Assembly (NCBI GenBank): GCA_051294375.1
Contig: CM119264.1
Span: forward strand, 20,127,564 to 20,176,285
DNA from: Paraspadella gotoi
Lineage: Eukaryota; Animalia; Chaetognatha
DNA length: 48,722 nucleotides
Direction: 5' to 3'
Positions 6,560 through 46,814 of this stretch are shown here, one piece after another (positions within the stretch are counted from its first letter, which is position 1; each line of letters opens with the position of its first letter). Made by a program: the position numbers and the translations under genes. The notes below the pieces were generated by a model. The model was given only the letters and a program-made list of their open reading frames with translations. It was not told the DNA's origin and made no database searches.

Positions 6560-6910
6560 AGTAAACTATCTCAGCCCTGACATTGGACTGGCTTTGGTGG
6601 TTTAAGGCGTCCTTTACAATTACAAGACAATAACATAGCAGGACCCTACAATCATTCAAACAAGGCTCTCTCAGTCTTGTTTATTCACACCCAGAGTACC
6701 CGGCTTCTCTATCAAATGGTCTAAAGTTTTAAAGTATATTTAATTTGTATAAAAGGAACACTCTATGACAACGGGGGAACATTAGTGACCGTGAGGGGAT
6801 TGAACCCGGAACTCAGGGTTGGTGAAGAAGTACTTTGCAGCCCAAGCCAATCGGACAAGCTGAGTTTTACCAAGCTATACGGGAGGCGAATTTAGGATTC
6901 GCCACAACTC
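6560..6910 (-). mobile_element. Degenerate element: leader hairpin + tRNA-like head + family A body with decayed twister
   Basis: Hairpin GGCGAAT/ATTCGCC near 6885-6903, B box GGTTCAATCC near 6800, family A homology about 6567-6716; twister 6567-6629 has GA changed to AA and other lesions. Confidence 0.55.
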
Positions 6911-7707
6911 CCTTCATAACCACAAATTTCAAGCATTGTAATTTGTCTTAATCTTCTTATTGGTTATCTAAACTTTAAAATGCTATGTCGGAATTTTTTC
7001 TTTCTTTCTTTTCTTTCTTTTTCTTTTCTGTACAGGGGAGGGACCCTACATCGAGACAAAACGTAACGTCCTGCCTTGTCTGAACGATTTGAGATACAAT
7101 AATAAAATGAGTGGCAAAACTTTGGGGAGAATTTTTACATTTATATGTAATGAAAAAAAAATTTTAAGCAACTACAAGGCGTCGCGTCGTGGATGTTTTC
7201 AAAACATTTAGTCGCGCACATTGTAAAAGCCATACTTTTCATAGGTCGTTTCTGAATTCACCCGATTTTAAGCTTTTCATCTCTATCCAAATTGAACCAG
7301 CTACAGCTCCAGCTCTAATGGGCCTAACACCAAGTGCTTACAGCACAAAAACGTTTATGATAAAAGCAAAATGAGACCATTTTTGGAAATTAGGCTAAAT
7401 TTTCTTTCCATCGATATCACAAATGTCTAGAAAATCCAACAGCAACTACTGTATTTAAAGCTTTTTGCATAACATAAAATTTAGTTTTAATAAAAACTAA
7501 ACTATAACTTACTCAAATCTTACCTACTTACTTTATAAATTTTTTTAACCAAAATACTATGTACACCTTGCCAGAAGCATTGTTATACTATAAATAAGTA
7601 CTTCCAAAAATATTTTCACTGTTATGTAATGGGATTTAACAATAAATATTCCAAACCGCGCAGTTGCCTTTGCTGCATAAAAAAAAGCATCAAAATAAAT
7701 AATATTT

Positions 7708-7948
7708 TGAAGAGACAGTAATAATTATAATTGTTAAGAGTTAATGACTGAATCATTCAATATTAGCAGTCTCTGAGCTTCGAATCAGGATGTAACACTG
7801 TGTTAACAGGCGGGTTAAGCGCCCTGTCCCTCTTAACTGCTAGGCGACCACCAGGCTAGAACCACAAACCTTTGGGTTGGGAGGCAAATGCCTTGCCTCC
7901 TGTACCAATGGCCGCTGATGAACGGTTGGTTTATTTTAGTCCACCATA
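7708..7948 (-). mobile_element. Family B tRNA-twister element, diverged copy
   Basis: Colinear with 46596-46814; twister 7764-7842 has an intact P5 (TAGCAGT/ACTGCTA) but a damaged T1 (CAG/TCG). Confidence 0.75.
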
Positions 7949-8953
7949 CATCCCCCTCCCCTAGAGATAAGTCTGTTTGCGTTAGGCGTGTGCCAAAGTT
8001 GCCAAAGTTTCTCGATTTTCAAATGAGGTCTCGGATAATATGGGAGGCCTAAAAAAGATGTTAGGAACAATCGCCGTTTTAGAATAGAAGCTGATCGCTG
8101 GCCGTGCTACCCTGCCTTGAAGGATTTTTGGGCACACCTTTCACGTTCATAGTTCATATGTGTTAAAGTAAGAAAGGTTTTTTGTTGTCCAACTTAAATT
8201 TAATTAGTTGTAAAAGTTAGAAAGTTAATTCAAATAAATTTCACAAGATCCCAACTACCTCTGAGGCTCTGCTGCAGCATTTACAACATGCGGAGGAGGT
8301 GGTAGCTATTAAAATAAAGATTATATCTTTTGAGTGCTGATGGTACTATAAAAGGTTCCTATAAAATTAATATTCATTAACAAGCCCTTTAACTAATTTC
8401 ATAACCTTTTTTTGAAAATGCAAGTATGTCTACACTCCTGGAGGATACTTCTTGTACAGTTTTTATAAATTGCTTAATTATATACAAAAATATAATATCT
8501 AATTAATTAGATAGTAAGACACAGTTTATAAAACTAGATAAGATAAAGTTTTTGGAAATCTTAAATTAAATTGACCAACAACTTCTCATGGGAGCCTCCT
8601 TTTGAAGGATTCTGAAAATTTATTCCACACCACATCAATTAAAAAAAAAGAAAGTTATGTTATCAAAAATAGCTTTAAAATAATAGTAATAAATTAAATA
8701 AAAAATTTTTACAGATATCATGATTACATTATACGAGGATGTGGACAAGGCTTGCTAGCTGATAGCTTTTCATTAACAAAGAAATAAAATCCTTATTTTT
8801 TGTTTAAAATATGGCCATAATAAATGATACCAAAAACAATTACTTTTAACCAAGGTGTGCCTAAATCTTTGTAAGATTCTTCATGTACAGACTGCCTGAA
8901 GGATAAAAATATCTTTTTATTATTATTATAGAATAAATATATATTTTATCATA

Positions 8954-10115
8954 GCGAGGAAAACCTGCTATGTCAATTATCTTTGTAAAGAGTGATGAGG
9001 GCCTTAAACACCAAAGCCTGTCCAAAGTCAGAGGGCAAGCATATGCTATTTATTAATGAAGGATAATTTTTATATTGTGTGTATAAACCAATTCAATAAA
9101 ATCAGCTCCTTGTATTTTGTTATGCATAGTGCGGATAACAATAAGTAATTCCGCACGATCTAATCTTAAGGGAGTGGTCTTTTCATAACAATTGAAACAT
9201 TCTTTGAAATATTTTCCACTTTCAATTGATAGGGAAGGCAGGTACTCTGTGAGAGTGAATAAACAACTGTGAGAGAGTCTTGAGTTGAAAAGCGTTGCAA
9301 GGACCTGCTATGTCATTATCTTGTAAGAAGTGATGGAGGGCCTTTAAACCACCAAAGCCTGTCAAAGTCAGGGGCAAGATTACTTATTTTATTAAATGAA
9401 TGGTACATTTTTAATTGGGTTGTACCATATTTCATAAAATTCAGACTCCTTGTATTTGATGCTATGCGGAGTACAATAATGTATTCCCCCGATCTAATAC
9501 TTAAGGGAGTGGTCTTTTCATACATATTGCAAACATCCATTTTGAATTTTTCCACTTCATTGATAGCGGAAGCCAGTACTCTGGGATGTGAATAAACGAG
9601 CTGTGAGAGAGTAGTCTGATTGAAAGCTTGCAGGGACCATGCTATGTCCATTACTTGTAGAGAGTGATGGAGGCCGTTAAGACCACCAAAGGCCTGTCCA
9701 AATCAGGGCAAGATACGCTTATTTATTAAATGAGATGGATAATTTTTGGTAATATATGGTTGTTAACCAATTTTCATAAAATTCAGCTCCGTTGTCATTT
9801 TGAGATGCTAGTGCGAGGTACATAAGTATTCCGCGATTCTAATACTATAAGGAGTGGTCTTTTCATACAATTGAACACATTCTTTGAAATATTCCATCCA
9901 GTTGATAGAGGAAGCCAGGGTACTTTCTGGTGAGTGAATAAACGAGATCTGTGAGAGAGGCTGATTGAAAGCTTGCAGGGATCCTGCTAGTTGTCATTAT
10001 CTTGTAAGATGTGGAGGCCCTTAACCTACCAAAGCCTGTCAATAGTCAGGGCGACAAGATAGCTTATTTATTAAATGAATGGATGAATTTTTTTATATTG
10101 TTGTTACAATTTCAT
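8954..10115 (+). repeat. Head-to-tail array of ~340-bp units (about 3.4 units, 4 twister motifs), retrozyme-like
   Basis: Twister motifs at 8978-9043, 9317-9381, 9652-9715 and 9998-10061 (spacings 339, 335, 346); each copy has different small indels; the array is absent from the opposite foldback arm, so it is an insertion. Confidence 0.85.
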
Positions 10116-11469
10116 GGATTATTGATCAGAATAAAGGCAATCAGCCTGAGTTAACTAAGAATATATAATATCTAATAAATACGATAAAATATCCTATATA
10201 AAATAGCTAAACTTCATTTACTTTAAATCTTAAGTTTTGGTTTTCTTTTATAAATGTTTGGTGTATTATAATTTTATCATATTTTAATTATATCTTACAA
10301 TTCTAATTTTCCTACTGCATGATATGTAAAGAAGGTGATTAACTGGATTTATTGGTTTATTAATTTTTTGATTTACATGAATTGAGTGGGGTCAATTAAT
10401 TAATTGATATGTAGTGTGGTTTGATTCTCTTTTACAGATTGTGTTGAATGATGAGGAATATCTGCATCATATATAGTAGATCAATATGAATTGTACTATT
10501 AAAGAACTTAATAAAATATGATTTCATAATATAATCACTGAACTCATATATCAATAAAAATTTTTTTATTATATCCATTTGGTCGGTCCATCAATCCGCC
10601 CACTCAGTCTGGCACTCAGTCACTTAATCATTCAAAAAATCGGAGATTAGATAAAAATTCTTGACAAAAAAGTTAATATCCGTCTCGTCCTGTGTCTATT
10701 CCAATAACATTAATGAAAAAAACAATTTAACAATGTTACAAATCTTTTATACTAATCTTAACCTATAATTATTTTAAGTAATCTACAAATTGGAGTAGAT
10801 GAGAAATAAATTTTTGGTATGGGTAGGAAAGTGTGTGTTGATTAGGCATGACGATATAAATAGGTTAAAAAAAATGATGCAAATAAAAAAATGAGGCAAA
10901 TTAATAAAAATGAATGCAAATTAAAAATGATGCAAGTTAAAAAAATAATGTGAGTTAAAAAGTATGATGTAATTTAAAAAAAATTGATGGACGGACCCGA
11001 GATTGAATAAACTATTTAAAAACAAATCACCTTTAAAAGTGGTTTATGTCACAGGTTTTCAGAGGCATTATTTCTCTCCTCACTGGAGTCTGGACGTTTC
11101 TAACGGTTAAATAATTCGCGATATCTTTTATCTTTCGCTATTCAATATTTTTCTCTTGCGGGAGAACAGGGCAAAGGCAGCAGCCAGAAGTCCACGGCCA
11201 CGTCGTGTCGTTGACCATGACGCGCGTAAATTGATGTTCTGATGATTAAGGTAAATGACCACCCAGATTCAGGTGTGGATGCGCTGGATCAACAAAATGG
11301 ATTATCAAAAGAATTTTTTTACACTGATTTATCTAATATTAAATGATTAATTTACTGAAACTCATAATTTTATCAAGTGTTTATAGTACATATATTGATT
11401 TAATCAGTATGAGTACAGATATTCTATTCCTTCAAACAACTGTAAAATGAATAAGTCAACCAAACTATA

Positions 11470-11900
11470 GAGATGTTTACAAGGTGTCTGCATGACAATA
11501 CGTTACAAGGTGTTTGGCGGATTCGCAGATGGATGGAGAAGTGGTACATTAAGGGTAGGTGGATCAGGGAGATCTGACAGAGGCTAAAATGACGGGCAGC
11601 TGGTGAAGCATGATGCAGGCCACGCTGAGAGTCGGGGTGTCAAAGGAGTAGCAGTACCAGCAGTGTACTTGTCTGACGCTACAGTGTGCGCATGGATAAA
11701 GGACGTTTGTGGGCAAAGTTTGTATAGTTGAGAGGACTGTTAAGATGGATGGGGCATATGGGCATGACTGTGATGAAGCACTGGGCGTGGCGGAACACTT
11801 AGCGTCTCGAGCGCTAATTAAGCGGACCGGCCACTAAGATCGCGCTTAGAGATTAGAGACGCGGTGGCCGAAAAGACGGAGCTGACTAAGATTTGAATTT
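11470..11900 (+). pseudogene. Degraded 3' fragment of an RTE-like non-LTR retrotransposon
   Basis: GC-richer insert in the right foldback arm; encodes LRWMGHMGM (RTE consensus LRWxGHxxRM) near 11740-11770, followed by a GRP-like remnant; many frameshifts. Confidence 0.45.
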
Positions 11901-13452
11901 TTTTCCCCTTTTTGAAACTTATAGTAAACTGGAGCCATAGAAGTAAAAGTATTAAACTACTACTACCCCTTTTACTCCATGTGTGTACATTAGCAATACG
12001 TTTGTTGAGTTTCGCAAGAGATGGTAATTAATTATTGGCATACACAGAAACAGCGACCAGTGCTAAGTTAATAATATATTAATTAATAATTAACCAACTT
12101 GATCAATTAATCACCAAATTATAAACCAATAATAAAATAATTACTTTTTTTATATATCATCAGCAGTGGGGAAATTAAGAAATTTAATCATTTGGAATAT
12201 ATTCAAATTTATAATAACTCTCATAACAATTTTTTAAAAACCTAAAAACTAAGCTTTAAAGTATATGGAATTTAGTTATCTTATTACAGGATATTTTATT
12301 ATTTATTAGATATATTATTCTAGGTTTGACTCAGGCTGATTGATTTATCTGATTTATATCATATTATGATAAAAATATATTTATTTATAATAATATAATA
12401 AGATATTTTATCCTTCAAACAGTCTGTACATGAAGAATCTACAAAGATGTAGGCACACCTTGGTTAAAAGTAATTGTATGATTAGTCTATCATTTATATG
12501 ACCATATTTTAACAAAAATAAGGATTTTATTCTAATTGAAAGCTTTATCAGCAGCAAGCTTTTTCCACATCCTCCAGCATATTGGAAATGCCTTTACAGG
12601 TGTATAAAAGAATTCTGTTCAAAAAATTTTAATTAAAAAAGTAACTACAAGTATTTTGCCAGCTATTAAAGCTATTTTTGATAACATAACTTTCTTTTTT
12701 TTTTAATTGATGAGGCGTGTGGAGATAATATTTTCAGAATCCTTCAAAAGAGGCTCCCATGAGAAGTTGTTGGTCAATCAATTTAAGATTTACCAAAAAC
12801 TTTTATCTTATCTAGTTTCATTAAACTGCCTTACTATCTAATTAATAGCTATATATTTTCTATATAATTAAGCAATTATAAAAACTGTACAGAAGTATCC
12901 TCCAGGATGTAGACATACTTGCATTTTCAAAAAAAGGTTATGAAATTAGTTAAAGGCTTGTTAATGAATATAATTTTATAGGAACCTTTTATAGTACCAT
13001 CAGCACTCAAAGATATAATCTTTATTTTAATAGCTACCACCTCTCCAGCATGTTGTAATGCTGCTGCAGAGCCTCCAGAGGTAGTTGGGATCTGAAAATT
13101 TATTTGAATTAAATTCATATACTTTTACAACTAATAAATTTAAGTGGGCACAAAAACTTTCTTACTTTAGACACAATGAACTATGAGTGAAAGGATGTGC
13201 CAAAAATCCTTCAAGGCAGGGTAGCACGGCCAGTGATCAACTTTTTAAACGGCGATTGTTCCTAACATCTTTTTTTAGGCCTCCACATATTATCCGAGAC
13301 CTCATTTGAAATCCGAGCAACTTTTGGCATTTGGCACACCCTACTGTTGCGTCTCTTCAGTGAATTGTTATTGTTGGTGTAAAGTTCATCACCAGGTTGA
13401 GGCAAATCGCCTGAAAGTGTTTGTCTGCTGTGTCAGAAATCGAGCTCACCAA

Positions 13453-13683
13453 TGAAGAGACAGTTATAATTGTTACAAGTGACAGAACCGTTCAATATAA
13501 GCAGTCCCTGAGCTTATGATCAAGGCGTAACACCGGTGTTACAGGCAGGTTTAGCGCCCCGTCCCTCTTAACTGCGAGGCGACTACTAGGCTAAAACCCT
13601 GGACCTTTGGTTTTGGAGGCAAATGACTTGCCTCCTGCACCAATGGCCGCTGATGAACGGTTGGTGGATTTTAGTCCACCATA
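13453..13683 (-). mobile_element. Family B tRNA-twister element, diverged copy
   Basis: Colinear with 46596-46814; twister 13501-13575 has L4 changed to TCATAAGC and TAA changed to AAA. Confidence 0.75.
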
Positions 13684-14094
13684 ATATCATCTAAAAGCGA
13701 AGAGAGAGTACTATATGAATATTTATTCAGATGATTTTATTTTATTTATTTATTAAAATCATGGACTTTTTAAAATTTTGTCTCGATATAGGGTCCCACC
13801 CCTGCGCTATTATGTTGTTGACAAATAGTCGTTGATAATGGTTGTTCCACCATGAGCAACTTCATCTAGTAAAATGGGCTTATACTTCATCTCCGAACCT
13901 GAAGACCCAATCGCGGTTTCCCAACTCCACTCCAGCGCTACCCAAAGGTCCCGAGTTGTAGTCCTTGTCGGTTCCGTCCTTTCATAAAACTATTATTAAT
14001 AGTGACGGGCTGGTTAATCTACCCAAAGCGCCGGGTGCAATACATGGGAACCGCCTCTCCTCTTGATTTTTTTAGCAAAACCATATCAACTCAC

Positions 14095-14546
14095 CTGCGT
14101 TAAAGGGCTCTACTCGTCCGGCAGAGATGAAAGGCAGTCTCCTCGGTGGCCTTAACTGATCGTTTCCTCCCTCTACACCGCGGGGATGAGGAATTGTAAA
14201 CGAGGAACGAAAAGTTTCCTCTGTCTTGCGAACTTTAAAAACTGCCACTTCGCCGTGGACGTCCTCGCCCGCCAATAGCTTGGATATCTTCTTCGTCGAT
14301 AATCCGCCGTCGACGGCCTTGTCCCTTGTCGTAGGCACCCGATCCTCTCGTGGTGCTCCTTCGTCCCTAACCCGACCCGCGCTCCCTTCCCCTCGTCCCC
14401 TGACTTCCTTTCCGAATCCCGTTGCCAGCGCTCTCTCATTCGTCCTCTCCATTGTCAAACTGGTTACCCGCTTCTCTGCCTGTTTGTCTTGTCCGAACCT
14501 CTGGGCCATTGTCGTCGAAGATCTGCGCCAGTGAAATGATGGAACA
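14095..14546 (-). CDS. Gene 2 exon 4
   Basis: Open GC-rich frame (ORF 14072-14509); consensus donor CAG|gtgagt phase 1; two phase-2 acceptors possible (exon start 14546 or 14522). Confidence 0.6.
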
Positions 14547-15613
14547 CTGTTAAAGTCGTCCGTTAAATGAACTTGTTACATATTGAAAATCGCATTTTAG
14601 AGTTTCTTTTCAGATTCGTGGGTTGAAGTAAAAGGGCATAAATTTCGTAGATAAAATGAGAGATGATATATTCGGATATTTAAATAAGGCAACGGTGAGG
14701 CTCTCACAGGAGCCAGAATAGGTTCTATATCTATTGGAACTAAGTCTATTTATAAGTTCAGAAACGATTCGAGAGCTAGGGTTAAATTTTTCTTTTCCCA
14801 TAAGTAGAACCAAATTCCTATAGTCGATCCCAAACCTTTTTTCATAATATTTTTATATTTTTGGATTGGGAATGACTGGAATAATGTAAATCTTAAGTTC
14901 CGTCTAAATTGGCCTGTGGATTTAAAAGAAATAGACCAAAAACGACCAAAATTCCTCTCCATTTTTTCAACATTCTCGCCTTTTAAGATTTTCGCCGATT
15001 CTGACTTCCTCTTACAAACTTATAATTCCGCTAGTTAATTTTTTTTTCTTAAACGAGCGAAGGGAATCCACAACTTTCTGTTATTTTATGATTTCTGGGT
15101 AAAAAATATAATAAATTACATTAACATTGGTATATTATGAAAGTAATATCTTATGAAGCCTGTGAGAGTTAAATAATTAAACAATTATTTTATTATTAAA
15201 AAATAACATCAAAGTGAAGAAGTTGAATGTCTTCCGGCTCCTTTCAGTAAATATCCCTGTTCTCTTCAATAAGATAATGTTTACTTTTTGCTGGTGGATA
15301 AGAAGGATAAATACTTAGGCTGTGATGGGGTAAATGATATTTTGTAGAATTTTGTAAGCATGCTTGTAAAATCAGACAAGCAAATATTTAAGTAACAAAA
15401 AATTCACATTTTCTTTATCCAAAAAACTTTAAAGTTTTACTAGAGTACAATTTAGCCTTTTTTCTTTTAGAAAAGATTGCCATTCCTTCAAAAGATATTA
15501 AGAAAAATCAGTTTTTTTCTCTACCTTCCTTTTAATTTCTTTTTAAATAAAAATTTTGTGATTCGAACTGGACTATTTCATTTAAACCTGATCATTTTAT
15601 GTCAAAATCATTA

Positions 15614-16705: not shown

Positions 16706-17190
16706 CTGACAAAGAGAGAATTTCAGAAAAACAGAAAAACAAAAACAGTGAGTACATACAAGGAGATCCACGGGTACCGACCTCAAAATAATTTTAATAG
16801 CTTTGTAACCAATTTGAGTACAATTTTCATTAATACTGCAAAGCAATCACGTCTTGAAAATTTTTTTTTAATACCCTTGTCCTGTTGTATGATCAATAGA
16901 GCGAAGTGAAAGTTTGAAATCAAAATTTAGCAGTTATGTCTTGAAAACTATCATATTAGTAAATACTAATCTGTAGTAGGGGTAGCCGCATTCAATGGGG
17001 TGAGTCAAAAATTTAGAGTTGAGTACATGTTCAAACGAATATTTAGATATTTTTAAGAATACTTTCAATGGACAAAAAATTTGTAATATGGCTCTATACC
17101 CTAGTTATTAATTTTTTAATATTTATTTATAGATAGGAAAGGCCAAAATTTTTTTAAAGAATTTTTAAATTTTAAGACCAGATTCAGATA

Positions 17191-18675
17191 CAGTAGCATC
17201 CGTCTAGAATTTCTGAGACGGCAAGCTCTGTAACTCGAGTACAAATGATAATTTTAAAAAGAGCTTTTGTCTTGATATCGAGTAGACATTTGGCTACTCC
17301 CCCTTTGGCAAGCCATGGCTCTACAACCAATTTTGGGACATCAGAACTTATTGTAAAAAGTAGCTTCGGCCAGATTTGAACCTGAAACCTTTTCGTAATG
17401 TTGAAATCCGGCGCGCTAAGCACTCGGCCAAATGATTTTCAAAAAATTTTGTACAAAATAAATTATATAAAGCTGTAGGTTAGCTTTTAATTTTTTGGGG
17501 GAAACAAAAAATTCAACGTTCGAAGGCAGAGATTTCGACATCCGAGTCCCAAGTTTCGTCGCAACAACGACGATACGAAGAAGAAAGCGAATATCTGGCT
17601 TATTTTTAATGTTTGAAATTGAGGAAAAGTCAGAGGCCGCGAAGTCGAACATTTTCACGTTGCTTCTAAGGTGTTTTAATAAGTGTTTTTAACCAGTTGC
17701 TTATTGTGATAATCTGCCTACAATAATTAAGCGGTAATAAGCTAATACAATGATAATTCTTGGTAATGTTTTCTGACTTTCAATTTGTGATCTTAACAGA
17801 TCATAACATAAACAAGATCGTAACATAAACAAGTTTAAGCAAACAATGTCGGATCTGCCCACGATCATTATCGGTAATTAATTAATAATTAATTTATAAT
17901 TAATTCAAGTTAATTAATTAATTTGGCAATTAATTATTTTGATCCAAAAGGTTTGTTTTGATTAATTAATTGACTTATTGATTAATTAACTGATTAATTA
18001 TTTGATTAATTAATATATCTTACATTTACATTTAATATAAAAAGGAAAAAAAAGCATTATCAATTAGTGAAACATGTTTTGTTTTTTTCCATTTAAACTG
18101 ATTTCCACTCAAACGATTCCATCGAAACTTCATATTCAGCTCAATCACACATTTCCCTACCCACACACAAAATTTCATTCCAATCCATCCATTCAATCAT
18201 GAATAATTGGTGTTTTTTGCTAAGGTGGGATGGACGGATGGAGAGACGGACTTTTTTTTGCATAATTTATTATAATTCGATGTTCTGACATGATATAAGT
18301 GAATGCCTGACAAGATTGAGGGACCGACAAAGTGAATTATAGAGTCAGGATCTGCTGAAAGGAGATCTGACTAAAAAGAAAAGAAAAAACAAAATTTATA
18401 TTGAAGTTTTTGATTTTTTTTTTAAATAACGAAATGGCCGAGTGGTTAAAAACTAAGACTTCGACGCAGAATGGTATAGTCGGATTCGAATCCCACTCAA
18501 GGTAAACTTTTACAATAACCTGCTATGTCCCAAAAGTTGTCGTAGGGCAATGGCTTACCGAAGGGGGAGTAGCCATATGAGTACTCGATAACAAGACAAA
18601 AACTCGCTTTTGAATTATCATTTGTATTCGAGTTACAGAGCTTGCCGTCTCAGAAATTCTAGACGGATGCTACTG
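17191..18675. mobile_element. Tc1/pogo-like MITE with ~245-bp TIRs
   Basis: TA|CAGTAGCATCCGTCTAGAATTTCTGAGACGG and its exact inverse followed by TA; empty site confirmed in the paralogous host. Confidence 0.85.
17828..18374 (-). mobile_element. HINE H-A nested in the pogo-like MITE
   Basis: Both termini present. Confidence 0.8.
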
Positions 18676-19140
18676 TAGCTAATAAAAAGTTGTCTACACA
18701 AAGTATAATTCTTTTTAAAATATTTTTACGATAAGTGTGTCAAAAATAAGAAAAACCATAAAAAATCATCATCTTCATCTTTCGATGATTTTATCATTTT
18801 TTTTATTTTCACTTAGAAAACATAAAAATTTTTAAAAGCTGTAATTATATGTCTTGTTTAACTTTTGATGCTCTATCAGAATCCATCAAAAAATTTTAAG
18901 ATTTAAAAAATAAAATTTTTGCTCTATATAGTAATATAATATTTTTAATTAGGCTAGTAACCTCAGAAGAAAGCATTTTTGATAAAAAATATTTTAATAC
19001 CGTAATCTATGGTCATGTTAGATTATTTTAACGCTGTATACATTAGCATTTAAATTTCATCGGCTATGACTATCTGTAGTTATTTTTATTTTTTTTACAA
19101 ATATAGTAGCTTAGTCAGCTTATTTTGTATATAGTACTAT

Positions 19141-19430
19141 TGTAGTCGGGCATTGCCTAGGTTCACCCCGCCTATAAGCATGACTCTTTCAGTTGTGAGC
19201 CGGTGGCTCATTGAGTAAAGCCATCAGCTCATGACCACTAGGTACCAGGTTTAATCCCAACCCGGTACCTACCCTGCGGGAAGAGTGAGGACGGCCGTAA
19301 GCCGCCTTGGGGGTGTGGCAAACCCTTAAGCCTGGTTCCAAGCCTTGGACCCGTTCCATGTCTGCTAGAGGGGGTTATAGAAGTTATGGATAGTCATCCT
19401 CAGCCAACTTAGCGCCTTATCCATACTACC
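19141..19430 (+). mobile_element. tRNA-derived short element, family C (leader hairpin + tRNA-like head + twister + 3' hairpin)
   Basis: Leader stem TGTAGTCGGG/CCCGCCTATA; head about 19197-19269 with TGGCTCATTGAG and GGTTTAATCC boxes; 3' stem TATGGATA/TATCCATA. Confidence 0.7.
19276..19354 (+). ncRNA. Type-P5 twister ribozyme motif, family C
   Basis: GCGGG-AA-GAGT-GA-GGA-CGGCCG-TAA-GCC-GCC-[P3 TTGGGGGT-GTGGCAA-ACCCTTAA]-G-CCTGG-T-TCC-AA-GC-CTTGG-A-CCCGT; T1 GGA/TCC, P5 GCGGG/CCCGT; predicted cut 19298/19299. Confidence 0.8.
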
Positions 19431-19495
19431 CTTATTATAAGGCTTATTATAAGGCTTATTATAAGGCTTATTATAAGGCTTATTATAAGGCTTAT
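19431..19495 (+). repeat. (CTTATTATAAGG)n perfect 12-mer tandem, about 5 copies
   Basis: Directly visible; lies between the family C element and an inverted family A terminus (19494-19515). Confidence 0.9.
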
Positions 19496-19630
19496 GAAAT
19501 TGGTACAACCAATATATTGTGTAATATATATATAATGTCAAAATTTTAAATTTTTTTTTTTTTTAAATTCTGAAAACAGATTCAGATTCCTTGATAAAAG
19601 ATAGAAGAAGATATAAATCTTTTTCAAAAA

Positions 19631-20651
19631 TTATGTCATTAAATAGGTTAAAATTATAAAAAAATATATTTTTAAACCAGAAATTAAAAATCGGCGTCTT
19701 AAATATAGTTTTTTGTATTGTAAAGGAGGTGCTGCTGTAGTTGGTTTTGGAGCCGGGGGAGGTGCGGCAGCAGTGGTTGGAGCAGCAGTTGGATTGATTG
19801 GAGCAGATTCAATTGTCGTACCTCCAAAATTTATTCTTCTGTTCCTTTCTCTTTCCAGTTGTTTGGTAAGTTCCTTGACTGATCTTACCAATTGGCAAAT
19901 CTTCTTTTCCTGTTTCTTTATTTCGACTTCATGATTGATGCAGTAATCTTGTATTTCGGTGATGGCTCTGTCTTGGGTGGATCTTGTCTCGTTGAAGGTC
20001 GTTTCTGCACATTTCTTGTTCCATCTCTTGTCTTCTAAGTTCCATTTCGCGTTCATACTTTCCTTCTTGTTTTTTCTTTTCTTCTTTAATGAGGGCGAGT
20101 TCCTGTTGTTCTCGTTCGAAATTGCGGAACGTTTGGTCGTCCCAAAACGTTTCCTTTGGTTTGGGGATTTCATACTCAGGGCCGGAATCCTCGTCTTCAG
20201 AAACAACATTCGGTTGTGTATCATTGATGGCGTCAAAATATCCATCAATCAATATTTCAGACTCATTTGTAGCATCATGTGTTTGCTTGGCTGCCGTCTC
20301 GGAATCAGCATCATCATTCTCGTCTTGCTCGTTTATTGCATCATTTCTCTCGGGAGGTGGCGCGTCACGGCGTCGTCGTTCGGTGACGTGAGCCATGTTG
20401 ATACTTTCGTCAAGCATCTCGCGTTGAACAGATCCTTTGGGATAGCTATCCTGCAGCATTTTGATCTGGCCAAGTTTTGTGTTCACCAAGAATTCCATCT
20501 CCGTTGCGATGGCGATGGCTTCAGGAGTTCCAGTTTGCAGGTATCGTTTAACTAGTCTACAAAGAGAGCCAACGGCGTCATGTATCCCTTCAGGAGAAAA
20601 ATCATCCATGTTGATTCGCGAAAATTCCTCCTCGAGAGCAGCAAATGTCAT
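19631..20651 (-). pseudogene. Frameshifted acidic/coiled-coil/Pro-Thr-Ala-rich ORF nested in gene 2 intron; possibly a retroelement ORF1/gag-like relic
   Basis: ATG at 20651 opens a 240-aa frame; removing one C near 19980 (GAC AAG ATC C ACC CAA) fuses it to a second coiled-coil and PTAAP-rich frame that degrades into AT-rich DNA near 19720. Confidence 0.5.
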
Positions 20652-21368
20652 CGTTTCGATATGAAATAAAGAATAAAAATTCAATTAAAGAGAGCAAGGG
20701 TAAGTTTGAATCAATCAATCAATCAGTATTAAATAAATTGCAAAGTTACTTAGGCGGAATGTTTAATTCGTAAAATTAAAAAAAATTCCTTTGAGACAAA
20801 ATTCGAATCACTAAGCAAACAAAAGACAATCAATCAACCATGAAAATCATTGAATAATCAATCGGTTCATTTATACTAAATCAGCTAATCGAATCAATAA
20901 ATCAATACATTAATCAATAAAATCAATCGGTCGATTAGCCAATCAATCAATTAATCAATCAATCAATCAACATCGATCAGATTCACCTTTTGGATTGATA
21001 TTTTCCGGTTCAAAGGGTTCTGTTGTCAAGCTTGAAAAACAAATTTAATTCAATCCAAAAATCAATCACAAAAACCAACTCAACTTCCGAAGCGATGGAT
21101 ACTTTCTTACTGTAGAATCTTCAGTAAAAACGTAGTAGGAACTTTGTAAGAAAGTAGTTGACGGTCTCTCTAAAATGTGATCCAGTGAATCTGTATTTTT
21201 CTAGTCTGAGCCTGTCCAAGTAAGAGAGAGAAAGAGAGAGAGGGAAAGAGAGAGAGTGGAGAAAGAGTCAGGTCAGTCCCTGTCCGGTCGATCGGTCAAT
21301 CGGTCGAATGGGTCGGATCTGGCCGTCTCCGTCGGTCTCGGCCTTTTCTCTTCAGTGCTTCACTAGTT

Positions 21369-21575: not shown

Positions 21576-21626
<51 letters not shown>

Positions 21627-31023: not shown

Positions 31024-31039
31024 CTGCAAGAAGATATAA

Positions 31040-31221
31040 TGAAATTGGTACAACCAATATAAAAATTATCCATTCATTTAATAAATTAGCTATCTTGCCC
31101 CTGACTTTGGACAGGCTTTGGTGGTTTAAGGCCTCCATCACTCTTACAAGATAATGACATAGCAGGTCCCTGCAAGCTTTCAATCAAGACTCTCTCACAG
31201 TCTCGTTTATTCACTCCCAGA
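31040..31221 (-). mobile_element. 5'-truncated monomer of the ~340-bp twister repeat (family A)
   Basis: Reverse-complement match to the 8954-10115 unit; same 3' terminus ...ATTGGTTGTACCAATTTCAT; flanked by AGATATAAT (31032-31040) and AGATATATT (31219-31227), a possible TSD. Confidence 0.75.
31091..31153 (-). ncRNA. Type-P5 twister ribozyme motif, family A, intact copy
   Basis: TATCTTGT-AA-GAGT-GA-TGG-AGGCCT-TAA-ACC-ACC-AAA-G-CCTG-T-CCA-AA-GT-CAGG-G-GCAAGATA: P5 TATCTTGT/GCAAGATA, T1 TGG/CCA, T2 AC/GT, P4 CCTG/CAGG, P2 ACC/G(A)GT, conserved GA and U^AA; predicted cut between 31128 and 31127. Confidence 0.85.
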
Positions 31222-31789
31222 TATATTATAGCAACAGCCGGGCATGTGATGCCCATTGCGAAGGGTCATCTCACTGTAAGCTCTGGGGGCATCTGACACT
31301 CAGAGGTACCGCCTGTTAATGGCGTGGTTAGACGGTTACCCGAGGACGGTCTCGCTTTACAAACGCAGAGGTGTGAGGTGTGAGGGGGTGTGAATATACC
31401 GCCACAATATCATATACATTCACAGACAACGAACAAAATAACATTGTGAGGAAATGGGTAAAAATGAGTAAAGAATTAATTAAGAAAGAACTACATAGAG
31501 ATCAAATTAGAGATTCCTTAACCGTTAAAAATTAACCGTTAATAACGGTTAAAATTTTTTTTAACTTAACCGTTAATTTTTGAATTTTAACAGTTAAATT
31601 CGGTTAAATTTTATTTTTTCCAATTTAGATATTTTGGTAAAAAATATTCTGTTTCCTTTAACTTATTCTGTTTTTCGAGAAATTTTTCTTAAAACAAAGT
31701 GAAACGTTCAAATAAGACACGTTTTTTATATAGTTTTTGTATTCATTATTTATTTATTCAGAGGAAAAACAAAGTTTGTTTTTGTTTAC

Positions 31790-37525: not shown

Positions 37526-37827
37526 TTAAGGAGACACACACATAAAATGCATTTAAGAAAAAGGGTCATTCAAATCAACTTCAAAATAGGCCAAAATGAA
37601 GTACAGATCCAAAAAGCTGAGCTGCCGATTCCGAAAATGTATTCACTTTAAACATTTGATACATTCTACACCATTTTATATTAGTTTTAATTATAATATA
37701 AAATAAAAGAAACCTATCTGAAGAGTTGCAGGTCAAACAAAAAAGCCAATCCATCTGATATTTTTTATGAATTTTTTATTACTGAATTAGAAAAATATAA
37801 TAGACATTTTTAAATTTCAAGTTGTAT

Positions 37828-38453: not shown

Positions 38454-38478
38454 CTTGTATCCTTGAAAATGAAACTAT

Positions 38479-39140
38479 TTAGTCGGATCTGCTTTTAGCA
38501 GATCCCGACTCTATAATTCACCATCGGTCGGTCGGTCCGTTGGTCTGCCCCCTGAATCTTTTTGGGCATTCACTTACATCATGTCAGAACATCGAATTAT
38601 GATAAATTATGTAAAAAAAAATGTCCGTCCGTCCGTCCCACCTAAGCAAAAAGCTCCAATAACTTGTGATTGGGTGGTTGGATTGAAATGAATGTGTGGG
38701 TAGGAAAGTGTGTGATGAAGCTGGATATAAAGTTTCGATGGAATCGTGCGAGTGGAAATGAGTCTAAATGGAAAAAACCTAAGTCACATTTAGTAAAATC
38801 TTTTTACTTATTTTAACCAATAATTACTCATAATTGGATGGATAGATTGAGTTGAAAAGTGTATGAAGAAGCTAGATATATAGTTTTGACAGAATCGTGC
38901 GAGTGGAAATGAGTTTAAATGGAAAAAACATAAGTCACATTTACTTGAATCTTTATTATTTATAATTACTAATTATTAATTAATTAATGTGAAAAAATGA
39001 TGCAATTAAAAAAATGATGCGAGTTGAAAAAATGATGCGAGTTGAAAAAAATATAAAAAAATATTGTGATTTATCATCTGATTAGCTGATTACGGCTTAA
39101 TTATTGTAGGCAGATCCGACTTTGTTTGCTCAAACTTGTT
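38479..39140 (+). mobile_element. HINE H-A
   Basis: Both termini; inserted in a T run of the Kolobok-like host. Confidence 0.8.
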
Positions 39141-39143
39141 TAA

Positions 39144-40234
39144 GGTCGGGGATCACTCAATTCAAATTATAATTAAGCTAAAACGAGCTCGCGATTTCGA
39201 AAGGAGAGCTCCTGGCGATTTCCGAAAATGTATTCACTTTATATTTTTCAAAGGCATTATCGTTTTTTTTCGATTTTTTTGTACTATATAAAATAAAAGA
39301 AACCTATTTGAAGATTTGCAGCCCAAACGGTAAGGCGGTTTCTCATGAACATTTGGCATGGATTACTTTTAGTGACGCGAACTCCAATCTATGAAAAGAT
39401 ACTTTCAAAATTTGCCTTCCTTCATAGAAAATTTGATTATTTTAGTCAATTTTTGGGATAAATTCCTTGATATCTTTGAAACGAAAAAACTTTTTTCCAA
39501 AAACGCGCTCATAGAATCTCCACCATCTTTCCTTTTCTTGCCCAAGATATTTTTTTCTTCAAGAAGAATCCTGTGGTTTGAGCTGCAACTCTTCGTTTTA
39601 ACTTCACTTCGTCAAGAAAGTTAAATTCTGTTACTCATTACTTTTGCAAGATTCACCACAACATACACAAGCACGGGATGTGATGATGGAGTTTGTTTCA
39701 ACGCCGATGTCTAAAAAAATGGCTTACTGGTTTTTAATTTTTTTAATTCAAATTTGATTTTTTTTTCAGAAGATTCCCCTAGAAAATAGGGCAACTATTT
39801 TATGATATAACATTTACATAAAGTAAAAAGTCAAATTGAAATAAATCATAAGTTTTTTAACTTAAAAGCATAAAAACCTATCTGAAAAATGTGTAGAGTA
39901 GTTTGTTTTAGACTTATTAGTGATACAACTTCAAGTATGACTTGTACCAAAGGAAGAATAAATATAAGGAAGTAGAAATTGAGCTTACTGTAAAGAATAG
40001 TTTAAAGTTAAAAATTTGATTGTAGAAATTTAGCTTACATTTAAAAAAATATTTTTCTTTTGAAAAATCTAGTTTTACCGAAGAAAAAAAATTGTTTAAA
40101 TTTTGATGAACATTTGAAGTAGATTTTAAAAAGTTTTCTATTATTTTTTAATAGAAACCCCTTACAGATGTAAGCAAATGATAAAGATACAGTAAATTAA
40201 GATTTCTACAATTTTGATTGAGTGATCCCTGGCC
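39144..40234. mobile_element. Kolobok-like non-autonomous element K2
   Basis: TTAA|GGTCGGGGATCACTCAA ... TTGAGTGATCCCTGGCC|TTAA. Confidence 0.75.
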
Positions 40235-41183
40235 TTAAACTTTAACCCTGAATTCTTCCTAACTGGAACGCATTGATCAAAATGTTCTCTATACATTTTT
40301 CTAAATGTTTTTAAGATTGCTAATCAAATTTTTAAATCAATATTATTGCAGTCGTTTAGGCTGCAACTCTTCAAATTCAGTGTAGATTCATTGTAGCTCG
40401 AATTTCTTTACCATCTATTTAACTGAAGATTTGGTTCATGACGGGAAAACCAACAGGAGTAACAAGCATTAATTGTTTAATTCTCCCCTTCTAAATTATC
40501 CCTTACGGTAGATACCTCATAGGAGAGCTAATTTTAATTTATTTTATTTGCGTTTTCGACGATCTTGTAACGCTTTTGGGCATAAGTGGTGTAGGCGTCG
40601 TCGTCGGCGTTCCAAATTATAGATCGCCTTTTTTATGATTAAATTTGGGTGCATGAAGCTGAAAATTTATATACAGCTTCTCATCATCGATGTTTTGTTT
40701 ACGTTTTATCAAAACAAACAAACTTTCTCTCTTTTATTTTAATATTTCTTTCTCTCCCTCTTTTCTCTTTTAATTACATGTCTCTCTCCCTCTCTCTTTT
40801 CCCTAGTCACTGATTCATAATCATAGGGAAAAAAACGAGTCTGCAGCTGGCTTTGCAGGGGCTTATTCTTTTTCTCTCTTTTCTCTTGCTGCTTCTGCTG
40901 CTGCCTTTTGAGTCTGCAGCTGGCTCTGCAGGGGCTCTTTCTTTTTCTCTCTTTTCTCCTGCTGCATCTGCTGCTGCCTTTTGATTTCTTTCTTTTTTTT
41001 GGGTGCCTCTGCTGCTGAAAATGATTTGGCTTCTTTCTCTCTCTCTCTCTCTCTGATTAATTTTTTCCCTCTAAAAACTTTTATTATCGCCATTTATTCA
41101 CAAATTTACATCCGAGATTTTCGTGGATTTTTTTCGTTGATTATTTTTTTTTTTTTTTTTTTTTTTTCTCAAATTTGATTTTT

Positions 41184-43194
41184 TTAGTCGGATCTGCTTA
41201 TCAGCAGATCCCGACTTTATAATTCACTTTGTCGGTCCGTCGGTCAGCCCCCTCAATATTGTCGGGCACACACTTATATCATGTCAGAACATCGAATTAT
41301 CATTAATTATGCAAAAAAAAAACGATGTCCGTCTGTCTGTCCGTCCAACCGTTCGTCCCACCTTAGCAAAAAACTCCAATTACTCGTGATTGGATGGATG
41401 GATTGGTATTACATTTTGTGTGTGGGTAGGAAACTGTGTGATTGAGATGGATATGAAGTTTCGAGGGAATCGTGCGAGTGGTTTAAATGGAAAAAAAAAA
41501 ATATATTTCACTATTTGAACGCCAATTTCTCATGAGTGGATAGGGCAATTGACTTGAAATTTTGTATGATGGTAGGAAAGTGTGTGATTGAGCTGGATAT
41601 AAAGTTTCGATGGAATCGTGCGAGTGAAATGAGTTAAAATGGAAAAAACAAAAGTCATATTTACTTGAAGTATTTTTACTTAAATTTACTCATAATTATT
41701 ATGTTTATTAAAAATTGGATAGATAAATCGAAATTGAATTTTGTGTGTGGGTAGGAAAGTATGTGATAAAGCTGGATATAAATTTTTGATGGAATAGTAG
41801 GAGTGGAAAAGAGTTCAAATTAGAAAACCAAAGAACACATTTATTTGAATTTTTAAAGTTTCTCTTTCTCTATCTCTCTCTGATTGATTGATTGATTGAT
41901 TGACCAAATTATGCAAATTGATAAAAATATACCAGTTGACCAAATTCTTAAAGTTGACCAAAAATTATGCCAGTTGACCAAATTCTTAAAGTTGACCAAA
42001 TTATGCCAGTTGACCAAATTCTGCAAGTTGATCAAGTTCTGCAAGTTGACCAAATTATGCCTGTTGACCAATTGCTGTACCAAATTATGCCAGTTGACCA
42101 AATTAGGCCAGTTGATAAAATTATGCAGTTGACCAATTATCGCGGTTGACCAAATTATCTTAATTGATCATTATGTCAGTGACCAAATATGTCAGTAGAC
42201 CAAATTATGTCAGTTGACCAAATTATGCAAGTTGATTAAATTATGCAAGTTGACCAAGTTAGCTTATTACCACTTAATTATCAATTGACCTCGAATTTTG
42301 TATGTTAGTAGAAAGTGTGTGATTGAACAGGAAACCAAGTTTCGATGGAATCTTTTGAGTGGAAATGAGTTTAAATGGAAAAAAAACAAAAAACCTTTTT
42401 TACTAATTGATTATGATTCTTTTTTCCTTTTATATTAAATGTAAATGCAGGATGTATTAATAAATCAAATAATTAATCAGTTAATTAAGCAATTAGTCAA
42501 TGAATTAATCAATAATTAATTAATCAGTCAATCAATCCTCCATCCGTCCCACCTTAGCAAAAAGTTCCAATAACTCGTGATTGGCTGGTTGGATTGGAAT
42601 TAAATTTAGTGTGTGGGTAGGAAAGTGTGTGATAAAGCTGGATATAAAGTTTCGACGGAATCGTGTGAGTGGAATGAGTTTAAGTGGAAAAAAACATAAG
42701 TCGCATTTACTAAAATATTTTTACTTATATTAACCAATAAGTACTCTAATTAATCATAATTGGATGGATAGATTGAGTTCAAATTTTTTGTGTGGGTAGA
42801 AAAATGTGTAACGATGTTGATATAAATTTCGGTGGAAACGTACGAGTGGAAATGAGTTTAAATGAAAAAAATATGAGTCACATTTACTTGAATCGTTTTA
42901 CTTATTTTAACCCATAATAGATTGAGATGAAATTTTGTGAGCGGGTAGGAAAGTGTTTGAAGAAGCTAGATATAAAGTTTGATGGAATTGTGCCAGTGGA
43001 AATGAGTTTAAATGGAAAAAACATAAGTCACATTTACTTGAATCTTTATTATTTAGGATTACTAATTTATGATTACTAATAAATGTTTTAATTAATTAAT
43101 TAATGTGAAAAAATGATTCAATTTAAAAAAAATTATGCAAGTTGAAAAAATGATGCAAGTTCAAAAAAATCCTAAAAGCATAAAGATCGTCGCA

Positions 43195-43226
<32 letters not shown>

Positions 43227-44090
43227 AGAAAGAGAGCAGAAAAATGAGAATAAGGATCGTCGCAATTGCAAAGAGAGAGAGAGAGCAGAAAAATGAGCAT
43301 AAGGATCGTTGCAATTGCAAAGAGAAGAGAGAGAGAGAGAGAAAAGAAAGAGAGAGAGTCCGGAGATAAAATTAGTGAAAAAAAGTTGTTATTTTACTCT
43401 CTGAATAAAAATACTTAAAATACTTACAAAATACATAAAATTGATAAAATTATTATTCCGATAACATTGTTTAATCACATGCAATATATCTAGTAAGGCG
43501 GGCCAAAATTGAACACTTTTTATAACTTTTAGTTCTCTCAAAAAAATTTCTTTTTCCTTCTACTACTAAATCGATTTTCAATGTAACTTTTGAATTAGTT
43601 CATTGGGTTGTTGCACTGAAGCTTTTAAATATTTATTAATATATAATAATTATATAAAGTTTTGACGGAATTGTGCCAGTGGAAATGAGTTTAGATAGAA
43701 AAAATATAAGTCACATTTACTTGAATCTTTAATATTAATGATTACTAATAAATGTTTTAATTAATTAATTAATGTGAAAAAAATGATGCAAGTTAAAAAA
43801 ATCTTAAAAGCATAAAGATCGTCGCAATTGCATAAAAAAGAGAGAGAGAGAGAGACGAGAGAGAGAGAAGGAGATATAAAATAAAATAGAGGATTTTTGT
43901 TTGTGATGATAAAATGTAAACAAAACATATTTAATAACTGTCCTAACCCAATTTTAAGAACATCGATGATGATAAGTTGAATATAAATTTAAAATTAATT
44001 ATTACATATTAAAATTAATTAATTAATTAATCGATTAATTAATTAATTAATTATCGTAGGCAGATCCGACATTGTTTGCTCAAACTTGTT
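41184..44090 (+). mobile_element. Long composite HINE H-A
   Basis: Both termini; expanded central repeats; contains an 18-bp minisatellite and tandem H-B-like ends. Confidence 0.8.
41898..42290 (+). repeat. ~18-bp minisatellite (GTTGACCAAATTATGCCA)n
   Basis: About 20 diverged units visible; explains the repetitive ORFs at 41853-42149. Confidence 0.9.
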
Positions 44091-45956
44091 AGTATCAAAA
44101 TTTGTCGTCAATCCAGACTTTTCTTATGCAATTGCGACGATCCTATTGCTTTTAAGATTTTTTTATATATTTTATGCCAGTCCCTGGAGGATGATAGTGA
44201 AGTATAAAATTATAAAAATTCCGTCCTCCACTTAATGTCAATATTCATTTGCAAACAATTGTTTTAAAATACCTACAATAGTATCCAAGATATGGTCATA
44301 AACGTCAGCCTTGAAAGGCAAAATTTATCAGAATAAAATTTTCAAGTTTCTTTAAAGATTTCTGACACGCTAGTACTAACTATTTAAAAAAAAAGAGAAA
44401 ACGTTTTGCTGATTTTTCCAAGCATTTACCATAAATGAATTTTACGATGGGTACAACTGAAAGTGTTATGTCTCTAGATGACGAAAAATTTCTATATTAA
44501 AATTTAAGTATTATACCAATAGGATTATGTGAGATACTCCCGCTTTGCCAAAGATTTGTACAGCGTAGTTCAAATCCTTAGTTCTTTAATGGGAAAAAAA
44601 AGTTATTTTCTTGAATAACTTTTGAAAGAAAAGAGGTATGAAGGTGAGTGAGGTATAAAATTAAAGCCCAAATCATGGGACACCTTTCTAAAATAGTTTT
44701 ATTAAATTTTATCTATAATTATTTACACAGCTTTTGTTTAAATTAGAGTTAAAAGTATAACAGTTTTTTGCATTAAAAATTTCAATGAAGACATATGAAT
44801 TTTTTTATTTTCCTTTTGTAAAGACTGAATTACATTTTTATTACCATTTTCTCTACTCCATAAATTTGCTTATATTTTTTAGTTAAAGTAAAAAACAAGC
44901 AAAAATTTATGTAGTAGTTTGATAAAATGTCTTTTTAAATATGAAAAATGATAAATACAAAAATGTTTCCAGCTTGATATAAACAGTCTGGACGTCTACC
45001 TTCTTGTCTGTGAAAGAAAAATCGTCATTTTTCATTATTTTCAACTGCAAAAAAAAAACCTTGACATACTGCTTGTTTATCATAATAAAATTTTAAAAAA
45101 TTACATAGCTCGTGACATATTTGACAACGCAAGACATTGTGTTAAATTGTATTGATAATTTTCTTTTAAATATAACTACCTTTATACAAGGAATTTAATT
45201 CTATTATTTATCATCTATTTTAATAAGAAAAATTCGCGGAATAGCCCCTTTACTGCCATTTCACAAGACATAAAAGGTCATGATTATCGTGTCAGTAGGT
45301 CCAGATTATCTGTACGCTTCCTGCAATCTGCATTCTGAATTTTATTTTTTTCCCTTTCAAATGTATTAAATAAAAAAATTATATGAAAGAATGATCGGCG
45401 TGGATGATGCCATTGGAGAGACTTAGTTACCCCACTTCCCGATCGAATTTTTAAACAAGGTTTTTTTTTCATCTATTCGAGACAACACTAGCTATTGATT
45501 CTATTAATTTTCTATTTCTTACATGTAATTTTCTATTTCTTACATGATATTTTCTGAGTCAGAGAAACGTTTAGCGTGTCAAAAAAATAGGAAAAAAAGA
45601 GTAAAACGTTCTGACAAATTAAAAAAATTATGGAGGAATCTACTACTTACCAAGATTTAACTTTTTACCTAGAATTTTTTAACAACCAGATTGAAAAACA
45701 AATCTTTAAAAAATGTGCTTACCCATTTAACTTGACAATTTTGTTATTTACCGATTTAAAAAAATGATTGAAAACAGAATGTTTATATATAAATAAAAAC
45801 TTATTCTTTTTGTGATTACTGATGACTATAATGTATTTCTCGATAAATTAGCTCTAATACATCAATGATTACGCATTGTTATGGTGAATGACCCTTCCTC
45901 TTAAAGAAAGATAAGAGAGAATGAAAAAAAGAAGGAAATCAAAGAAAGAAAATCAC

Positions 45957-46121
45957 CTTGATGATTGATGCCCTTTACATTTACAAGTATATGTAGGATA
46001 CGAGCAAAGTACTGGTTTCCCTCAGAGAATCCCTGGCGCCTATGGACGTGACGCTGGAGGGCCAGAAGGTGACTTTCTTGCAAGAGCTGAATTGCTTCGA
46101 CACTGTTCAATCCGTTTTGAT
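45957..46121 (-). CDS. Nuclear receptor (NR1-like) ligand-binding-domain exon, helices 9-11
   Basis: 165-bp exon, acceptor ttttttatcgttgcttcag, donor CAAG|gtgatt, phase 1-1. Encodes (D)QNGLNSVEAIQLLQESHLLALQRHVHRRQGFSEGNQYFARILHILVNVKGINHQ, matching the NR LBD pattern DRxGL..VE.LQE..L.AL...F.++L..L..++.+N. Upstream exons not found in the window. Confidence 0.85.
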
Positions 46122-46595
46122 CTGAAGCAACGATAAAAAAATAAATAATTAAGGAGCTATGGCTATAACGTGGAGACATGTGTGATGCCCGGGGTGTGAG
46201 ACATCTCACGACAGCTGGCGCTCAGGGATTTGGAACTGCAATAACATCGATGGAACAATATTTTTTTACTGTCTTTGTATATGTAATAAAAAATAATCTC
46301 TTTTTCAAAAAAAAAAAAAATGCATAAGTGTCATTAATTGAATTTCTTTTATACTGAGTTCGGACTTGAATCTTAACCCCTTAATTGATCCTCCGATTGT
46401 TTTACAAATTTTTTTAATTTTTTATAGCAGAAGAATCGTTAAGGATTTTTCTATCTTTTGGATTGTATTTAGTTTTGCTATGTCGAAAAACATTTGTATG
46501 GGAAGCAACCGAAACAATAAGTCATGTTTGCTCCGCGCCCAAACAGTTAAAATTCAACTACATATAAATATTTGCACTCCTGCAAAAGTTACAAT

Positions 46596-46814
46596 TATGG
46601 TGGACTAAAATCCACCAACCGTTCATCAGCGGCCATTGGTGCCGGAGGCAAGTCATTCGCCTCCCAACCCAAAGGTCCGGGGTTCTAGCCCGGTGGTCGT
46701 CTGGCAGTTAAGAGGGACGGGGCGCTTAACCCGCCTGTAACATGGTGTTATAGCCTGATCCGAAGCTCAGGGAATGCTTATATTGAACACTTATCAATAA
46801 TTACTGTCTCTTCA
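46596..46814 (+). mobile_element. tRNA-derived short element, family B (leader hairpin + tRNA-like head + twister)
   Basis: Hairpin GGTGGA-CTAAAA-TCCACC; tRNA-like 46629-46701 (GCGGCCA/TGGTCGT acceptor stem, A-box-like TGGTGCCGGAGG, B-box-like GGTTCTAGCC); shared end CTGTCTCTTCA; two further copies in the window. Confidence 0.8.
46703..46778 (+). ncRNA. Type-P5 twister ribozyme motif, family B, best copy
   Basis: GGCAGTT-AA-GAGG-GA-CGG-GGCGCT-TAA-CCC-GCC-[P3 TGTAACA-TGG-TGTTATA]-G-CCTGA-T-CCG-AA-GC-TCAGG-G-AATGCT; T1 CGG/CCG, T2 GC/GC, P4 CCTGA/TCAGG; predicted cut 46727/46728. Confidence 0.85.

Follow-up and report, generated by a model that had tools for sequence, protein, structure and literature searches.

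Three repeat families in a 48,722-nucleotide (nt) window of Paraspadella gotoi DNA (contig CM119264.1; the window is the whole stretch that we analysed) carry motifs whose sequence and covariation support a type-P5 twister ribozyme fold, with a six-base palindrome in the place of stem P1. We consider it very probable that these motifs are active twisters. The families, here called A, B and C, differ in structure: family A forms a tandem array and is abundant among sequencing contigs, and C, as yet a putative repeat family, occurs only once in the window. We propose that families A and B are likely non-autonomous, retrozyme-like derivatives with a 3′ module taken from a Naiad, a Penelope-like element, and that C is perhaps another; this is the simplest reading of the start sequence of family B and of the likeness of the twister modules, and it agrees with a proposed Penelope origin of animal retrozymes. 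Gating of the twister by pairing between two copies is plausible in view of the tandem array and of the cofolding of family A, and is weakened by published reports that P1 is dispensable.

The three motifs were found at the places given in the original prediction, each with the type-P5 core. Each family has a single intact copy (A31, B46 and C19; Table 1), and these three share the part order P5-AA-GAG(T/G)-GA-T1-hexamer-TAA-three-base P2-T2-C-P3 or AAA-P4-T-T1′-AA-T2′-P4′-P5′. Each has a U^A site within UAA, a general-base G in the GA step, and T1 (3 base pairs, bp) and T2 (2 bp) pseudoknots that are fully Watson-Crick. A31 has its GA step at 31139-31138 with G31139 as general base, a predicted cut at U31128^A31127, TGG/CCA as T1 and AC/GT as T2. 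For B46, the hexamer GGCGCT at 46721-46726 precedes a predicted cut at U46727^A46728 (T1 CGG/CCG, T2 GC/GC), and for C19 the hexamer CGGCCG at 19292-19297 precedes one at U19298^A19299 (T1 GGA/TCC, T2 GC/GC); P4 of C19 holds one U.U mismatch. P2 in these motifs is 3 bp with a bulge. The intramolecular P1 hairpin of a type-P5 twister is absent, as the hexamer can form only 1 bp closing a tetraloop, and a 6-bp P1 requires two copies. The description of the families as unrelated did not hold: their cores all contain AAGAG(T/G)GA and, in P4, a CCTG strand, and they are also related to twisters of Naiads described below. The modules being related, the three palindromes are not of independent origin.

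A sequence pattern built from the motifs themselves matched the window four times and none of 100 shuffles, and a looser structural descriptor recovered A31, B46 and C19 together with four AT-only matches, against a shuffle mean of 0.5. For covariation, six window copies were aligned by MAFFT and scored against a structure derived from the same sequences, so that the controls are lenient. In this alignment, 87.7% of cells pair (94% in P2, 83% in P4 and 86% in P5) and 13 of 24 pairs differ on both sides; none of 500 shuffles attained the pairing or the covariation value, and slid-structure controls paired 28–52%. The covariation predicted for T1 and T2 was borne out, with three pair types at the first T1 position, two in T2, and double-sided changes in two of the three T1 pairs and one of the two T2 pairs. 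A covariance model made from the six copies gave ten window matches (six in A, three in B, one in C), and the remaining hits were all no better than E 0.05. A search with the Rfam twister-P5 model, proposed earlier as a check, succeeded in part: family A matched Twister-P5 (RF02684) with 25.8 bits (E 0.25), below the gathering score of 37.6 bits, and the Rfam scan returned no twister match for B or C, leaving all three families under that score. Neither Rfam nor a core scan identified a hammerhead in the window. The structural descriptor was passed by none of the 164 pattern-match loci listed (34 in viral contigs, 10 in metagenomes and at least 120 in prokaryote genomes), and no occurrence of the motif beyond animal repeats turned up among the pattern matches listed.

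As had been predicted, the hexamer at the P1 place is self-complementary in A, B and C. Its pairs also covary between families. Ranked by self-duplex stability among all 4096 hexamers, AGGCCT stands 20th (-9.1 kcal/mol), GGCGCT 47th (-8.3 kcal/mol) and CGGCCG 7th (-10.7 kcal/mol); closing a hexamer on itself as 1 bp plus tetraloop costs +3.0 to +4.6 kcal/mol in the energy model. Positions 1 and 6 show three pair types across families in the six-copy alignment, and at positions 3 and 4 both A and C have GC where B has CG, a pair that is impossible within one strand and requires two copies. These changes at 1/6 and 3/4 are better evidence than the probability of palindromy. Of the pattern matches within the 164 chance loci listed, just 13 had a self-complementary hexamer, and in family A contigs from sequencing runs no variant reached 3% within AGGCCT. 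Free cofolding of two family A motifs yielded a strand-swapped dimer with the hexamer duplex; in swapped dimers of the three motifs, this duplex contributes 9–11 kcal/mol in the energy model.

Family A shows a fixed 3′ end, 5′ truncation, and tandem and inverted structures; the terminal base is the same in the solo copy, the array and the 23-nt remnant. As a retrozyme unit we took a non-coding tandem unit of 150–450 bp with low GC and one ribozyme. Family A has non-coding tandem units of 334–345 bp in a region of 34% GC with one twister each, and solo B and C lack such tandem units within the window. Compared with A31, the array units carry 9–14 insertion events and 1–8 substitutions, and the decayed copy A6 has 23 substitutions and zero insertions. 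Because insertions outnumber substitutions, A6 is free of them, and no indel reached 3% within the element across aligned contigs, the array insertions are likely long-read sequencing error.

Contigs from sequencing runs extended this picture. In run X1, from which this DNA may itself derive, 19,469 contig records aligned to the 183-bp solo copy, and 1,152 did so in run X8, from another study; summed depth on the solo copy lay four orders above its flank, which is no measure of copy number. Family A is very abundant and, if the retrozyme reading is true, would rank among this genome's most abundant repeats. Run X1 contained 384 loose ends at 31039, with a pile-up at 31038-31042 followed by unrelated AT-rich flanks, and past 31221 most of its records ran on into the remainder of the family A unit. 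Joints in this run, among 15 of 137 listed, were head-to-tail in four contigs, partial-tandem in four and opposite-strand in two, the types described for Naiad insertions. Four ribozyme variants reached 3% in family A contigs, namely a P5 U.G to U-A change (11%), one at the bulged A (10%), one in the AAA linker (3%) and a T1 G-C to G.U change (3%), and all are fold-neutral. A distinct repeat fragment at 31244-31277, just upstream of A31, was likewise covered far more deeply than the flank in both X1 and X8, and run X12 gave a match to it.

Two lines of comparison point to a link between these families and Naiads. The motif TGGTGGAC occurs three times in the window, each time as the 5′ start of a B copy, and in the Naiad consensus file (PMC8557442 File S5) 14 of 15 matches to CTGGTGGA lie at element starts, including those of Mgal and Bpla; this comparison was made post hoc, with the sequences already seen. 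By eye, the 3′ ends of five bivalve consensi in File S5 (Naiad_Mgal, Bpla, Mphi, Scon and Mmer) contain a type-P5 twister. All five have two palindromic stretches of 8–12 nt, differing in sequence, between T1 and the cut site, and in two the cut-site triplet is CAA and not TAA. Three of the five match family A, again by eye, in a 3-bp P2 bulged at its second base and an AC/GT T2, and Mgal and Bpla also have family A's P4. In the sampled part of File S5, matches to six hexamers included no compact one-hexamer twister, and a first search of Naiad consensi by loop sequence gave chance matches only. Naiads have been described as 5′-truncated, partially tandem and often inverted, with no clear target duplication and no canonical hammerheads (Craig et al., 2021; PMC8557442), and the word 'twister' is absent from the text of that paper. 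Our literature search found no paper containing both 'twister' and 'Naiad'. Animal retrozymes have been proposed to derive from Penelope-like elements (bioRxiv 10.64898/2026.07.22.740005), in a preprint that makes no mention of 'twister'. A separate observation concerns the 3′ ends of Naiad_Olur, Tgra and Pmar and of one consensus from a hemichordate in File S5: they are without a twister and have in common another conserved motif, similarly placed and containing a palindrome of 10 nt, which may be some other structured RNA.

The three family B copies have both ends in common and a length of ~220–240 bp, and family C has no second copy within the window. A folded stretch lies upstream of the twister in B and C (z -2.3 to -3.8). 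Transfer RNA (tRNA)-derived heads for B and C were not established: ARAGORN found 0 tRNAs and Rfam none in these heads, and an A/B box scan matched two of three B copies and not C, with 11 window matches against 6.6 in shuffles. A tail motif common to A and B was rejected as not significant, with 9 matches against 5.8. Segments 7708-8900 and 12414-13685 form a duplication of ~1.2 kb at 85% identity with a B element in each, and the A array lies just past one of them. A 241-bp direct repeat of 100% identity (46811-47051 and 47875-48115) has its start at the B46 3′ end. The stretch 19431-19516, which follows the C twister, consists of a 12-bp unit in 5.4 exact copies directly abutted by the 23-nt family A remnant.

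Table 1. Twister motifs and the repeats that carry them, in window coordinates.
Feature	Position	Strand	Basis or remarks
Family A type-P5 twister, intact (A31)	31091..31153	-	No P3, AAA linker; structural descriptor, covariation
Palindromic hexamer AGGCCT at the P1 place, family A	31129..31134	-	Structural descriptor, energy calculation
Family A solo element	31039..31221	-	5′-truncated, 183 bp; fixed 3′ end at 31039
Family A head-to-tail array	8963..10115	+	3.3–3.4 units of 334–345 bp; one twister per unit, at 8981, 9318, 9655 and 9999
Decayed family A twister (A6)	6567..6630	-	General-base G and palindrome lost; in an older copy at ~6559-6763
Family A 3′-end remnant, 23 nt	19494..19516	-	Sequence match
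Family A 3′-tail remnant, 49 nt	4910..4958	-	Sequence match
Family B type-P5 twister, intact (B46)	46703..46778	+	P3 present; structural descriptor, covariation
Family B element	46596..46817	+	Naiad-like 5′ motif, hairpin 46598-46617, folded stretch 46629-46702 (putatively tRNA-like), twister, short tail; repeat comparison, folding
Family B copy (B7)	7708..7948	-	Twister 7841-7765, T1 damaged
Family B copy (B13)	13453..13685	-	Twister 13576-13500, UAA altered, T1 broken
Family C type-P5 twister (C19)	19276..19354	+	P3 present; single copy in window; structural descriptor, covariation
Folded stretch upstream of C	19195..19268	+	tRNA-like by eye only; fold z -3.8

In our model, the palindromes of neighbouring copies would pair into a 6-bp P1 and tandem transcripts would be cut into units, a proposal that we judge evenly balanced. 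These small non-coding elements, with a twister near the 3′ end, would probably be copied by a Naiad-type Penelope-like retrotransposon. When motifs stand head to tail in one transcript, the sequence implies that the 3′ half of each motif can join the 5′ half of its successor in an ordinary type-P1 twister whose P1 is 6 bp long, and the reciprocal halves of the neighbouring motifs would make a second cleavage site. Cutting would free unit-length RNA with 5′-OH and cyclic phosphate ends. A lone copy or monomer circle would hold a single hexamer, able to form only a 1-bp tetraloop P1, so that cutting would be slower and the circle relatively protected, as with slower monomer cutting in the palindromic hammerheads of newts and axolotl. 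The axolotl hammerhead, with 1 bp and a palindromic tetraloop, cleaves 6% as a monomer and efficiently as a dimer, and unit RNAs of hammerhead retrozymes are ligated into circles (PMC7229834); the same dimer logic has been reviewed for Penelope hammerheads (PMC6765202). For the elements in this window, we infer cleavage, dimer dependence, circles and mobilisation by Naiads, and to dimer-assisted cleavage in itself we give an equal chance of being right or wrong.

Several points weigh against this model. The insertion-rich array copies include motifs that are broken as assembled, and depletion of variants in the A motif is unclear, at 4 of 63 sites against 13 of 120 elsewhere in the element. 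A twister appeared in only 5 of the 21 Naiad 3′ ends viewed in the sampled File S5 (9 bivalve and 12 other), all of them bivalve; by eye, none was present in the 12 non-bivalve and 4 of the bivalve ends. A scan of 134 of the 155 window open reading frames (ORFs) brought up neither a reverse transcriptase nor any other credible match in Pfam, so that the partner element is unseen, and no autonomous Naiad, with an ORF combining an N-terminal GIY-YIG domain and a reverse transcriptase, was recognised among them. The cofold minimum of B and of C differs from the swapped dimer, and monomer misfolds outrank the twister fold in A, B and C in a model unable to score pseudoknots. The base-composition-matched joint chance of three self-complementary hexamers is ~0.02 (24/180, 24/60 and 8/20), and these hexamers, probably of common ancestry, are less independent than that calculation takes them to be. 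Finally, twisters without P1 cut near the wild-type rate (PMC5408937), and natural type-P1 twisters tolerate P1 and P2 defects, with cleavage not lowered by P1 defects (PMC11662667).

Since P1 is reported to be dispensable, a monomer may already cut, and the motifs could be active twisters of 'mini-twister' behaviour whose palindrome dimerises the RNA for some other step, such as template pairing or switching in tandem insertion, or tunes the rate. Six of the ten window copies are solo, the other four making up the family A array; the hexamer can close as 1 bp plus tetraloop, and the two longer palindromes of bivalve Naiads could each form a hairpin. Closure through 1 bp is energetically unfavourable in the model, however, a hammerhead of analogous geometry needs the dimer, the palindrome occupies precisely the place of P1, and cleavage by P1-less twisters has also been called inefficient (PMC8501958). 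We regard monomeric cutting with a separate role for the palindrome as a real possibility, though a rather unlikely one. It is improbable that the palindrome is incidental to an active monomeric twister, a GC-rich linker handed down from one ancestor: the modest composition-matched chance, the relatedness of the families and the mere three independent hexamers on hand fit such a linker, yet two of the three hexamer pairs differ on both sides between families, and the five Naiad consensi have unlike palindromes at the same place. That the motif is a twister-derived fold which has ceased to cut and acts as the structure that reverse transcriptase recognises likewise seems to us improbable, since the sub-threshold Rfam score and the competing folds that would suit it are set against activity-sensitive features (U^A, general-base G and both pseudoknots) intact in one copy per family and four common family A variants that are all structure-neutral.

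The surrounding window DNA is AT-rich and repeat-rich. On the minus strand, 45946-46128 is a putative exon with a weak likeness to the ligand-binding domain of nuclear receptors (NR1I3 being the best match, at E 0.005); a protein search with this exon found no relatives, and B46 would have an antisense position within or next to such a nuclear-receptor-like gene. Another repeat, at 18435-18680 (plus strand) and 17186-17430 (minus strand), has a clear tRNA-type head, in which the A box and the B box are both good, and a hairpin in its conserved body. One copy shares 12 bases with a stretch that in family A lies immediately 5′ of the twister, and neither copy has a ribozyme match. Beside C, overlapping ORFs at 19929-20684 (251 amino acids) and 19631-20248 (minus strand, 205 amino acids) have no Pfam match, and a protein search with the longer one found no relatives.

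We tentatively suggest, as a scenario somewhat short of an even chance, that natural twisters gated by dimerisation, and retrozymes built on a twister, have their first example here: the hammerhead of a Naiad lineage would have given way to a twister while the palindrome stayed, several small parasites would have captured the module, tandem transcripts would be cut to units, and monomer circles would be spared. The lack of the hammerhead of other Penelope-like elements in Naiads has been taken to suggest that this ribozyme is dispensable or parasitic (PMC8557442). If the scenario is true, the twister would occupy the hammerhead's place and repeat its palindrome-for-stem design, a case of convergence on one function, and RNAs of 63–79 nt would allow direct tests of what self-cleavage and RNA pairing do in transposition of the Penelope type. 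A twister dependent on pairing between two copies would also offer a simple switch for RNA engineering. Animal retrozymes have so far been defined by the hammerhead, and family A would widen the class to a second ribozyme.

Among known systems, the closest in fold is the type-P5 twister (RF02684; PMC5408937, PMC10085705), with which the window motifs share part order, U^A site, GA step, T1 and T2, P4 loop and P5 end. In the RF02684 consensus, P1 is a paired hairpin and P2 has 4 bp, whereas the window motifs have a 6-nt palindrome and a 3-bp bulged P2 and reside in animal mobile repeats. Our literature search found no natural twister that is palindromic or dimer-dependent and no twister retrozyme, in a comparison that leaves the Rfam seed and Roth 2014 alignments to one side. 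The T-variant twisters of Perere-3 in Schistosoma (PMC8501958) are likewise P1-defective twisters in retrotransposons, but those are type-P1, lie at the 5′ end and lost P1 by truncation at the cut, whereas the window motifs are type-P5, lie near the 3′ end and have a conserved palindrome; truncated twisters at RTE 5′ ends have also been mentioned (PMC7761336). The minimal Penelope-associated hammerheads that cleave as dimers (PMC6765202) likewise have a very short palindromic stem in a tandem layout proposed to allow dimers. They belong to another ribozyme class and need their helix III, whereas twister P1 is reported to be dispensable. Compared with Naiads (PMC8557442), the window elements are 220–345 bp long, have no ORF and have one hexamer palindrome where bivalve Naiads have two longer ones; family A resembles them in its 5′ truncation, partial tandems, inverted copies and lack of clear target duplication, and family B shares their 5′ motif. 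Metazoan non-long-terminal-repeat (non-LTR) retrozymes (PMC7229834; bioRxiv 10.64898/2026.07.22.740005) are, like family A, made up of tandem units, each a few hundred bases long, non-coding, low in GC and with one ribozyme, and they have a Penelope link. Non-LTR retrozymes carry a type I hammerhead and the window elements a twister instead; family A would function like a dimeric-hammerhead retrozyme while standing, with no hammerhead, outside that class as it is defined.

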